Shown here: one piece after another, positions 44,638 to 45,783 of the stretch
Numbering within the stretch: the stretch's first letter is position 1
Layout of the letters: the number at the start of each line of letters is the position of its first letter
Virus record (IMG/VR): IMGVR_UViG_3300027648_000001
Location: 1-64,000 of that record
Length of the DNA: 64,000 bases
Origin: a virus
Reading direction: 5' to 3' (one strand)
The notes under the pieces: generated by a model
Seen by the model: the letters and a program-made list of their open reading frames with translations, nothing else
Database searches by the model: none
What the model was told of the DNA's origin: nothing
Position numbers and translations under genes: made by a program

Positions 44638-45309
44638 ATGCGTTGGGATATGAACGAAGTAATTGTTGAGACTGGCCGCAGTGGTATGCGCGAAAGGAAG
44701 GGTGAACTACGGGTCATCCAAAATTACGCGCGAACGGAAGATTACGAAGGATTCCCAACCCACGAGTCCATGAGTCGGCACCGCTATAGTTCTTGGCGGT
44801 CGATGGGTGACAAGCTTAATCCACTTCGCCGATATCTCAGGGCGAATTTGGGTCGCAAGTGGGACGATGTATATTCCGAAATCCGCGCAGTAAACGATAA
44901 GCGGTCCATTCTTGGATTTCACCTTCTAACTCACCTTGCACAATATATCGATCTCGGAAAGCCGAAATACTGGCGCAATCGTTTCTTTGAAGACGAGAAT
45001 GGAATCCTCCGTGAATACCCCACAAAGCCTTGGCGCACACGCAACCGTGAAGAGTTAAGGCTACGGCCGGTCGAAAAAGTGATTATCAATGAATCGCGCT
45101 ATTACGAGCTTCTCAAGGGTGTCTGGTTTCGCTACGATGCCCGTATCATTCGTTATATGGTTCCTGAGTTCATCTTTTGGAACGGCCGTGTTAAGCCTGC
45201 TCATGAAGTGATAGAGACAGTCTGGGATAAGAAGCAGGCCAATAAGAAAGAACTGCGCGTTGTTCGCGATATGGCCGGTAAGGGCATCAATGTGGTCCGC
45301 GCAAAATAG
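44638..45309 (+). CDS. conserved hypothetical protein (223 aa)
   Basis: ORF track. CCCTTGGAGGGG leader. TAG stop. Same frame as the downstream PTH2-like gene. Confidence 0.65.
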   Translation: MRWDMNEVIVETGRSGMRERKGELRVIQNYARTEDYEGFPTHESMSRHRYSSWRSMGDKLNPLRRYLRANLGRKWDDVYSEIRAVNDKRSILGFHLLTHLAQYIDLGKPKYWRNRFFEDENGILREYPTKPWRTRNREELRLRPVEKVIINESRYYELLKGVWFRYDARIIRYMVPEFIFWNGRVKPAHEVIETVWDKKQANKKELRVVRDMAGKGINVVRAK

Positions 45310-45322
45310 ATAGATATTAGCC

Positions 45323-45351
45323 TTGACAGGATTTCTCGCTTGCTGTACATT
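45323..45351 (+). promoter_or_regulatory. promoter (TTGACA-N17-TACATT) with TTTCTCGCTTGCTG in the spacer
   Basis: Near-consensus -35. ATG 45358 begins 7 nt after the -10, so the transcript could be leaderless. Confidence 0.5.
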
Positions 45352-45357
45352 GTGGAC

Positions 45358-45783
45358 ATGACATAGATAAACGAAAAATACGTTTTTATCTTCATTCGCA
45401 CCGACCTTCCATTTGAGCAGCAAATTATCCAGTCGAACCATGCTACTTATCACATGGCGTCCCTTACTTATCAGGACGGCACGCCGAATATTGTCCTAAT
45501 TGGGATGCCAGACCTCGCCGCGCTTAAGCGCGTCCTGGCTAAGCTACGTGCTAACAATATCTTGCACTACCCTTGGACCGAGCCTGATTTTAATTTTGGG
45601 CTGACGGCGATTGCAACTGGTCCGCTGTATGGAGAACAGCGTGAAATCCTTAAAAACTACAGAGTTTATTCGCCCGTAGCTCAAAACACAGAGCGCCCCA
45701 TTCTAAACGGGGAGTATGCAGGTGGAACCCCTGCCGGGCGAGCCAATGCGGGAGGCACGGCTACTAGTGCGGTGCGGCCTTGA
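45358..45783 (+). CDS. PTH2-fold (peptidyl-tRNA-hydrolase-2-like) protein with in-frame TAG at codon 3
   Basis: ATG ACA TAG, then an open frame INEKYVFIFIRTDLPFEQQIIQSNHATYHMASL...NIVLIG...GLTAIATGP...ILKNYRVY that matches the PTH2 fold pattern from its first beta-strand. The ORF-track ATG 45454 would truncate the fold. The 3' 114 nt run through a tRNA gene. Confidence 0.55.
45670..45745 (+). tRNA. tRNA-Sup (CUA), class I, Gln-like amber suppressor
   Basis: Hand fold: acceptor TCGCCCG/CGGGCGA (U1-A72), D arm GCTC-AAAACACA-GAGC, anticodon arm CCCCA-TTCTAAA-CGGGG (A31xC39), T arm GCAGG-TGGAACC-CCTGC, G73, CCA. Lies inside the PTH2-like ORF. Confidence 0.7.

Follow-up and report, generated by a model that had tools for sequence, protein, structure and literature searches.

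How can a gene be expressed when its third codon is a stop, and what reads that codon? The question is raised by a 64,000-nt stretch of viral DNA (IMG/VR record IMGVR_UViG_3300027648_000001, positions 1 to 64,000), referred to here as the window. It carries a gene for a PTH2-fold protein that begins ATG ACA TAG and is followed directly by two tRNA genes with the amber-reading anticodon CUA. Comparison with homologous loci points to an answer: phage suppressor tRNAs and a gene for a putative PTH2-fold tRNA-ester hydrolase, gated by the very stop that those tRNAs read, likely form a two-part module. The early in-frame stop is called the gate throughout.

From ATG 45358 the frame reads ACA, TAG (45364-45366), ATA AAC GAA AAA TAC GTT TTT ATC TTC ATT CGC ACC GAC and so on, and after the TAG it is uninterrupted on the plus strand until TGA 45781-45783. 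The next in-frame ATG, GTG or TTG is ATG 45454, 29 codons downstream of the gate, and the mechanical list of open reading frames (ORFs) holds only 45454-45783 (109 aa) for this gene. A sequence-only reading of the window had pointed out that the frame is open back to the TAG, with none of these start codons before the first strand of the domain, and that an ATG lies two codons before the TAG; the sequence check agrees on both points, the A of ATG 45358 being the seventh base past the -10 element of a promoter. Within the window, no coding-strand TAG other than 45364 has both an ATG within the 6 codons before it and an open frame of 80 or more codons after it. The same reading had drawn attention to the upstream ORF 44638-45309. 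This ORF does end in TAG (45307) in the frame of the gate, with no further stop before 45364; the shared frame itself looks incidental, because the upstream gene of a 65%-identical relative (L005 among the homologous loci, which carry L numbers) ends in TAA.

The domain encoded after TAG 45364 has, according to structure prediction, the alpha/beta fold of Pth2. The AlphaFold2 model of its 100 residues, computed from a family alignment of 121 sequences, has a predicted local distance difference test score (pLDDT) of 93.5 and a predicted template-modelling score (pTM) of 0.87, with strand 1 at residues 5-11 and helix 1 at residues 16-33. Foldseek against the PDB returned only Pth2-fold structures among its top 14 matches (template-modelling score, TM, 0.61-0.78; probability 1.0), namely 13 chains of six Pth2-family structures (3erj, 1q7s, 1rlk, 2zv3, 1wn2, 1xty) and Atu0240; the best match in BFVD is the RaK2 ‘peptidyl-tRNA hydrolase’ (TM 0.92). 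The fold, which had first been assigned from remembered motifs, is therefore upheld by the kind of structural search that the sequence-only reading had named. It is recognisable only with the family alignment, since the single window protein has no Pfam match at E <= 1, the PTH2 model included, and a sequence search of the PDB is likewise unhelpful. Among the 121 relatives, 75 match PF01981 at E <= 0.01 (best 4.5e-06), and the family profile reaches a PDB Pth at E = 0.0019.

Homology with relatives sets in directly after the gate. A megablast search of 44600-46700 against GenBank phages found no match; tblastn against the same phages gave 32 records at 33-36% identity, all of them aligned from query residue 1 or 2. 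Homology thus begins one or two residues past the TAG and not at Met 45454. Residues R11, D13, P15, Q22 and H25, invariant or nearly so among relatives, lie upstream of Met 45454, and a product starting there would lack strand 1, most of helix 1 and these invariant residues, so the real coding region must start at or before 45367.

Compared with Pth2 proper (PF01981; AF2095 3erj, human Bit1/PTRH2 1q7s, S. solfataricus 1xty), the window family shares the fold, the R-x-D-L...Q-x-x-H-A motif, here R-x-D-L-P...Q-x-x-H-A, and the G-x-T of DAGxT. It is nonetheless a divergent subfamily: the ‘GK’ segment of Pth2 is missing throughout through a two-residue deletion, an invariant E-P-D precedes the loop, and canonical Pth2 genes start in the ordinary way. 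The position of the DAG aspartate is occupied by D, N, H, G or E among relatives (Asn76 in the window), in agreement with the earlier remark that the catalytic DAGxT stretch is not conserved, while the equivalent of its threonine (T80) is kept. The phage CBB has a separate annotated peptidyl-tRNA hydrolase gene, CBB_392, besides its gated gene. The whole family, gated and ungated members together, comprises 3634 cluster representatives at E <= 1e-3. Two scans of genome contigs for cellular relatives gave no confirmed match; the patterns were narrow, so this does not show absence from cellular genomes.

The gate is conserved far beyond the window. Scans of IMG/VR yielded 38 and then 43 loci, and in about 36 distinct homologues of 28-77% protein identity the conserved N-terminus is immediately preceded by a start codon with 0-8 sense codons after it and then a stop. 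The first tabulation comprised 29 distinct contexts, with TAG in 26, TGA in two and TAA in one; in the 27 contexts with a proximal ATG as start, the leader is 1-9 codons long including the start. The closest relative (L098, 77% aa identity) reads ATG AGA GCC AAA GCA TTT GCG TAG GTG, with the same promoter in front. Cultured phages with a gated gene include GAP32, CBB, Serratia BF, Arash, ME3 and RsoM2USA. The Salmonella phage Arash has GAGGAatcatc ATG CTG TAG AAC AAA, Kaldavass ATG GCT CAC TAG AAT GAA, CBB and GAP32 ATG GCA CAA TAG, the 595-kb uncultured phage LR756511 ATG ACT CAC TAG, ME3 ATG ACT TAG, RsoM2USA ATG TTG TAG, and L034 simply ATG TAG. All 29 tabulated contexts have a purine 3' of the stop, the single exception (L074, CCC) coming from the later loci; a purine at this position reportedly favours suppression in E. 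coli. RaK2 has no gate, and no suppressor tRNA lies within 12 kb of its gene.

Public annotation obscures this arrangement. In GenBank records the gene is truncated, split or left out, and public protein sets often show it as M-x-Q-..., where Q stands for TAG under genetic code 15 (verified for P0047, whose DNA reads ATG ACC TAG ATC). The neighbouring tRNA of Arash (L001 2810-2884; OQ632216.1 49176-49247) is labelled tRNA-Phe, and its loop CUCUAAA identifies it as an amber suppressor. The Arash ‘peptidyl-tRNA hydrolase’ coding sequence beside this mislabelled tRNA is annotated from an internal Met.

Some loci show other arrangements. Genes with an ordinary ATG in L036/L078 and L039/L081 are preceded, by about 85 nt and about 75 nt respectively, by a free-standing relic of the leader, consisting of a Shine-Dalgarno sequence with ATG AAG TAG or with ATG ACG CGC TAG ATT AAT GAA; around codon 35 the L039 gene itself contains a further TAG in frame. 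In L026 (2950-3010) a leader of ATG, nine codons and TAG is out of frame with the domain, whose own frame has no start, and the case is either an assembly indel or one that also needs a frameshift. In the Xanthomonas phage XacN1 (L092; AP018399.1 243690-245192) the PTH2-like domain forms the C-terminal part of the 280-aa ORF364, and a Shine-Dalgarno sequence with ATG AAG TAG lies 4 codons upstream of the annotated ATG.

The type of stop follows the anticodon of the neighbouring suppressor, and this co-variation indicates what reads the gate. The tRNA neighbourhood was surveyed in 10-kb flanks of the homologous loci. A TAG gate occurs with a same-strand tRNA-CUA in about 28 distinct lineages, at offsets from -9.8 to +4.3 kb and often within less than 500 nt. 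All three TGA-gated loci (L068, L071, L074) have a tRNA-UCA and no CUA, the three offsets being -4603, -267 and -116; it is the only tRNA in 19 kb in L068 and in 12 kb in L074. Of the two TAA-gated loci one, L097, has a UUA (ochre) tRNA, 1.1 kb upstream. No mismatched pair of stop and anticodon is found at default ARAGORN settings (Fisher p ~2e-5), and of the few that appear at a relaxed threshold (CUA in L060; UCA in L087, L069 and L079/80) each is either not found by Rfam or given another assignment there. Every TGA- or TAA-gated protein has TAG-gated proteins as its closest kin, so the stop of the gate has switched at least three times independently. One such switch can be followed closely: the proteins of L071 (TGA/UCA) and L089 (TAG/CUA) are 74% identical, and flank, acceptor stem and D arm mark the two tRNA genes as orthologues. 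Converse cases agree with the co-variation: RaK2 lacks both gate and nearby suppressor, and in L087 the downstream tRNA reads ACG, the CUA seemingly lost, and an ATG directly follows the TAG; the gene there has its own stop 20 nt before this non-suppressor tRNA. A 95-nt tRNA that resembles tRNA-B of the window and has the loop CCCCUAA is found in L088, at 2.3 kb from a family member with no gate.

The two suppressors of the window were detected with ARAGORN (default and relaxed, e.g. at a 90% threshold) and with the Rfam tRNA model (gathering score 29). Default ARAGORN lists 31 tRNAs at 34.6-44.6 kb and none past the gene. tRNA-A is missed at this setting and recovered at the 90% threshold (-ps90), and tRNA-B is likewise not listed by default; both exceed the Rfam gathering score clearly (Table 1), in line with the earlier statement that two CUA tRNAs stand right behind the gene. 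The acceptor end of tRNA-A carries U1-A72 and G73, and both its D loop and its T loop are atypical. Over six orthologues, 13 of its 21 pairs show compensatory change and the CUA is invariant, which argues that the CUA tRNAs are under selection. In E. coli, U1-A72, G73 and U35 belong to the glutamine identity set, and since tRNA-A has all three, the residue inserted at UAG by it is probably glutamine. tRNA-B has C33 rather than the near-universal U33, a long variable-arm hairpin, and U73 with G1-C72/C2-G71/G3-C70, a combination that fits none of the standard class II identity sets. The L098 orthologue of tRNA-B has U33 in a CUCUAAA loop, and its variable hairpin is conserved, with compensatory change.

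Gene and tRNAs are physically interlocked. tRNA-A overlaps the 3' part of the ORF, its first base standing directly after the last conserved protein codon, and therefore the ORF continues through tRNA-A. The ORF has no stop before the tRNA in six lineages (window, L044, L045, L046, L047, L086), where translation would meet a stop only 29-145 nt into the tRNA or past it. With gene and tRNA on one transcript, excision of the tRNA would leave a stop-less mRNA in the clade of the window. The 66-nt spacer between the two tRNAs is almost identical to that of L098, although the coding part has diverged. It is predicted to fold into a 7-bp stem and two small hairpins followed by UCCA, resembling a tRNA minihelix (-28.1 kcal/mol, z = -2.4), with one G-C to C-G compensatory pair relative to this relative.

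The promoter in front of the gene, described earlier as near-consensus, is confirmed by 10 of 12 consensus matches and is the best promoter-like site within 44300-46800; its last base lies 6 nt before ATG 45358, with gtggac between. Transcription probably starts at or next to A45358, a position deduced from the promoter, and the mRNA would then be leaderless. This earlier idea has gained support from the correct spacing of the promoter and from the conservation of the layout TTGACA-N17-(-10)-N6/7-ATG in the five closest relatives (L005, L086, L087, L098/L099). In clades beyond the closest relatives, a Shine-Dalgarno sequence takes the place of this leaderless promoter layout.

Table 1. Features of the gated locus in the window, with positions counted from the first base of the window.
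Feature	Position	Strand	Basis
Sigma-70-type promoter, TTGACA-N17-TACATT	45323..45351	+	10/12 consensus matches
Leader mini-ORF ATG ACA TAG, with the gate codon TAG at 45364-45366	45358..45366	+	Equivalent in ~36 distinct homologues
Coding sequence of the PTH2-fold domain (INEKYVFIFIRTDLP...NYRVY), 100 residues	45367..45669	+	AlphaFold2, Foldseek, tblastn
3' tail of the ORF (SPVAQNTERP...SAVRP, stop TGA 45781-45783), outside the conserved domain	45670..45783	+	Encoded by tRNA-A and spacer
tRNA-A, amber suppressor, loop UUCUAAA (CUA), encoded CCA	45670..45745	+	Rfam match 45670-45742, 45.1 bits
Spacer element, 66 nt, between tRNA-A and tRNA-B	45746..45811	+	Near-invariance, predicted fold
tRNA-B, second CUA tRNA, loop CCCUAAA, encoded CCA	45812..45910	+	Rfam match 45812-45907, 58 bits

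The analysis shows a conserved stop in frame, a Pth2 fold, two CUA tRNAs and a stop that changes together with the anticodon; readthrough at UAG 45364, though likely, is inferred, as are the inserted residue and the action of the enzyme. In the proposed mechanism, which is also the simplest account, the promoter would drive a transcript, probably leaderless, that carries the gene and then tRNA-A and tRNA-B on the same strand. A ribosome would initiate at AUG 45358, decode ACA and reach UAG 45364. If release factor 1 (RF1) wins there, translation would terminate after a dipeptide; if a charged tRNA(CUA) wins, the 100-residue hydrolase domain would be made. Output of the hydrolase would thus track the ratio of suppressor activity to RF1. 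A stop placed so early would be cheap upon termination, only a di- or tripeptide being lost, and tolerant of any inserted residue. That expression depends on amber suppression by the adjoining tRNAs was the central proposal of the sequence-only reading, and strong comparative evidence (N-terminal homology, conserved gate, stop/anticodon co-variation) supports it.

Several observations weigh against this interpretation or parts of it. No convincing CUA tRNA was found within 10 kb of the TAG-gated genes of five lineages (L048-50, L069, L079/80, L082 and L083), and no convincing UUA tRNA near the TAA-gated gene of L060, by relaxed ARAGORN and Rfam. The ungated genes of L078 and L091 also adjoin a CUA tRNA, so the link between tRNA and enzyme extends beyond gated genes and does not require the gate. 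Both tRNAs of the window have their quirks: C33 and an odd discriminator in tRNA-B, an A.C mismatch and a non-canonical elbow in tRNA-A. The catalytic residues of canonical Pth2 are presumably the Lys of ‘GK’ and the Asp and Thr of DAGxT, as derived from work on S. solfataricus; the Lys-bearing segment is absent here and the Asp is an Asn in the window, which tells against the putative hydrolase activity. The codon after the stop is, moreover, start-like in part of the family (ATT/ATC/ATA in 12 contexts, GTG in one, ATG in the five loci L044, L087, L089, L090 and L097), and initiation at that codon is therefore possible in some members. These codons, and the gated loci with no detectable suppressor nearby, would suit re-initiation, the main rival reading: after termination at the end of a leader of 1-9 codons, the ribosome would begin again at the adjoining codon without a suppressor, the leader serving as a ribosome loading or regulatory site. 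This is nevertheless unlikely. Many post-stop codons (AAT, AAC, GTT, GTA, GGC, ACC, GCG, CCC) are non-initiating, including those of all phages of the GAP32/CBB group and of the Arash-like cultured phages, and re-initiation accounts neither for the match between stop type and neighbouring anticodon nor for TAG in 26 of 29 contexts. A leader that needs efficient termination should also shun the stop that its own phage suppresses.

The same co-variation, together with the tight linkage to the cognate suppressor, bears on the idea that the early UAG senses RF1, with low RF1 leading to near-cognate readthrough much as prfB senses release factor 2 (RF2). An early in-frame stop in a translation-related gene does resemble prfB; stop and anticodon changing together indicate the tRNA as reader, and the idea is accordingly very unlikely as the explanation of the gate, while it does not exclude reading by the tRNA, since output depends on the ratio of tRNA to release factor. 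Use of code 15, in which TAG would be an amino acid throughout the phage and this gene one of many containing it, would fit the two CUA tRNAs in the window and the Q that public gene callers place here in many family members. It is hard to reconcile with ORFs of 3156, 1064 and 963 codons that contain zero in-frame TAG, with TAG as the terminator of 31 among the 132 stop-to-stop ORFs that reach 100 codons (a set with some spurious members, the Ro60 gene being one of the 31), with the ATG just after the TAG at the other two same-frame TAG junctions, and with the GenBank annotation of cultured relatives, which has no in-frame stops; its probability is very small indeed. Least credible is that the locus is a decaying pseudogene or holds a sequencing error, or that the 109-residue product from Met 45454, the only one that gene callers give, is the true protein. 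Such a product would be truncated as described above, and about 36 distinct lineages have the stop in the same position with protein conservation right up to it, which excludes decay or error. Decay was an outcome that the sequence-only reading had itself named as fatal to its proposal, and the comparative data reject it.

If suppression controls synthesis of the enzyme, what the enzyme does is a further question. Jumbo-phage PTH2 proteins have been noted before and proposed to rescue ribosomes after tRNA cleavage (Iyer et al. 2021, PMC7824862). The linkage to suppressor tRNAs is specific, a suppressor sometimes being the sole tRNA around, and this suggests a role tied to suppression. In the preferred, though tentative, reading the enzyme might act on ester-linked (peptidyl, N-blocked or aminoacyl) tRNA in connection with the suppressor, either as a restraint through negative feedback of the prfB kind or in the clean-up of tRNA esters made by suppression, and the gate would then set the enzyme dose in proportion to suppression. 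Equally open is that the tRNA is mainly a dedicated switch for making a hydrolase that targets host translation or tRNA damage. A more specific version, rather doubtful at present, is a homeostat in which the gated hydrolase would strip the suppressor of its aminoacyl or peptidyl group, or disable it otherwise, and, needing this suppressor for its own synthesis, would hold readthrough at a fixed low level. If true, it would be a tRNA-based analogue of RF2 autoregulation and would explain why standard-code phages can carry suppressor tRNAs.

The genes around gated loci are varied. The locus in L097 (10886-17611) lies among genes for Tpt1, PNKP and Rnl1 (T4-type RNA ligase 1), and in L079 (4154-4509) a phage transfer-messenger RNA gene (88 bits) is found 5.5 kb upstream of the gated locus. 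A search of neighbouring genes for a third conserved partner found only phrog_14850 (~100-180 aa), in some clades and not near the window gene; in several clades with no other close relationship it follows the gated gene at a distance of 0-1.5 kb (L051, L052, L054, L058, L065, L069, L070, L077, L090, and gp83 of Arash).

The window holds further RNA-related features. Another tRNA at 44462-44532, with anticodon UGU and an unusual T loop, is missed by ARAGORN and scores 47.8 bits with Rfam, so the tRNA array contains at least 34 genes. An orthologue of Ro60 (46648-48336; TROVE and Ro60 vWA domains, 562 aa) is encoded downstream, as it is in L098. It is preceded at 45990-46640 by about five repeated modules with the head GGGTCGGA...GGTTAYC and the tail TTTTATCT. 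One module (46083-46189) scores 41.6 bits against the Rfam model YrlA, under its gathering score of 69, and the repeat array probably consists of Y-RNA-like phage genes that include tRNA-like domains. Elsewhere in the window, TAG 21917 divides same-frame ORFs of 758 and 908 codons, with ATG 21926 two codons on and no Shine-Dalgarno sequence; it is possibly a second readthrough target yielding a fusion protein, or a case of plain translational coupling. TAG 52678 was considered as a further readthrough target and rejected as an ordinary junction with AGGAG and ATG 52690.

How the gated gene relates to known systems can be seen from four comparisons. In prfB, which encodes RF2, an early stop in a translation-factor gene likewise couples synthesis to the contest between termination and an alternative decoding event. 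It does so by a +1 frameshift and senses its own product, whereas here the frame is kept and a co-encoded suppressor tRNA would do the decoding; feedback through the hydrolase product is a hypothesis. Recoded phages (code 15 or code 4) also read in-frame stops with a phage tRNA-CUA or -UCA, and expression is thought to depend on the tRNA (Ivanova 2014; Borges 2021, 10.1101/2021.08.26.457843; Peters 2022, PMC9523058). Theirs are many recoded stops in many, mostly late, genes; here the code is otherwise standard, and one stop stands in one small gene, at codons 2-10, where the inserted residue is irrelevant. The pyrrolysine system, with the CUA tRNA of pylT encoded beside methyltransferase genes, resembles the module in having a dedicated CUA tRNA near a client with a single conserved in-frame UAG. 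In the gated loci no dedicated synthetase or special amino acid is seen, the stop occupies a non-conserved N-terminal position, and TGA or TAA may take the place of TAG when the tRNA matches. The leader itself recalls the bar minigenes of phage lambda (AUG AUA UAA/UGA), which are strongly initiated ORFs of 2-3 codons. Such mini-ORFs are said to cause peptidyl-tRNA drop-off and dependence on peptidyl-tRNA hydrolase. The bar minigenes are free-standing, whereas the mini-ORF of the window is fused in frame to a hydrolase gene. In kind, the recoding would be suppressor-tRNA readthrough with prfB-like gating. A literature search found papers on phage suppressor tRNAs without identified targets and papers on phage PTH2, and none among them that joins the two or mentions the in-frame stop.

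The consequences reach beyond this locus. A systematic annotation error is exposed, the gated gene having been misannotated or omitted in GenBank and one suppressor called tRNA-Phe. If the gate works as proposed, nature would have provided a portable switch of translation that depends on a tRNA and comes in three orthogonal versions (UAG, UGA and UAA), relevant to genetic-code expansion. For the phages themselves, suppressor tRNAs have repeatedly been reported under the standard code by authors unable to find what these tRNAs read, and for the two CUA tRNAs of XacN1 the authors of that study found no target. What can now be offered for such tRNAs is a client gene that is conserved and physically linked and shows stop/anticodon co-variation, and since XacN1, RsoM2USA, ME3, GAP32, CBB and Arash carry the arrangement, the question is directly testable in cultured phage-host pairs.

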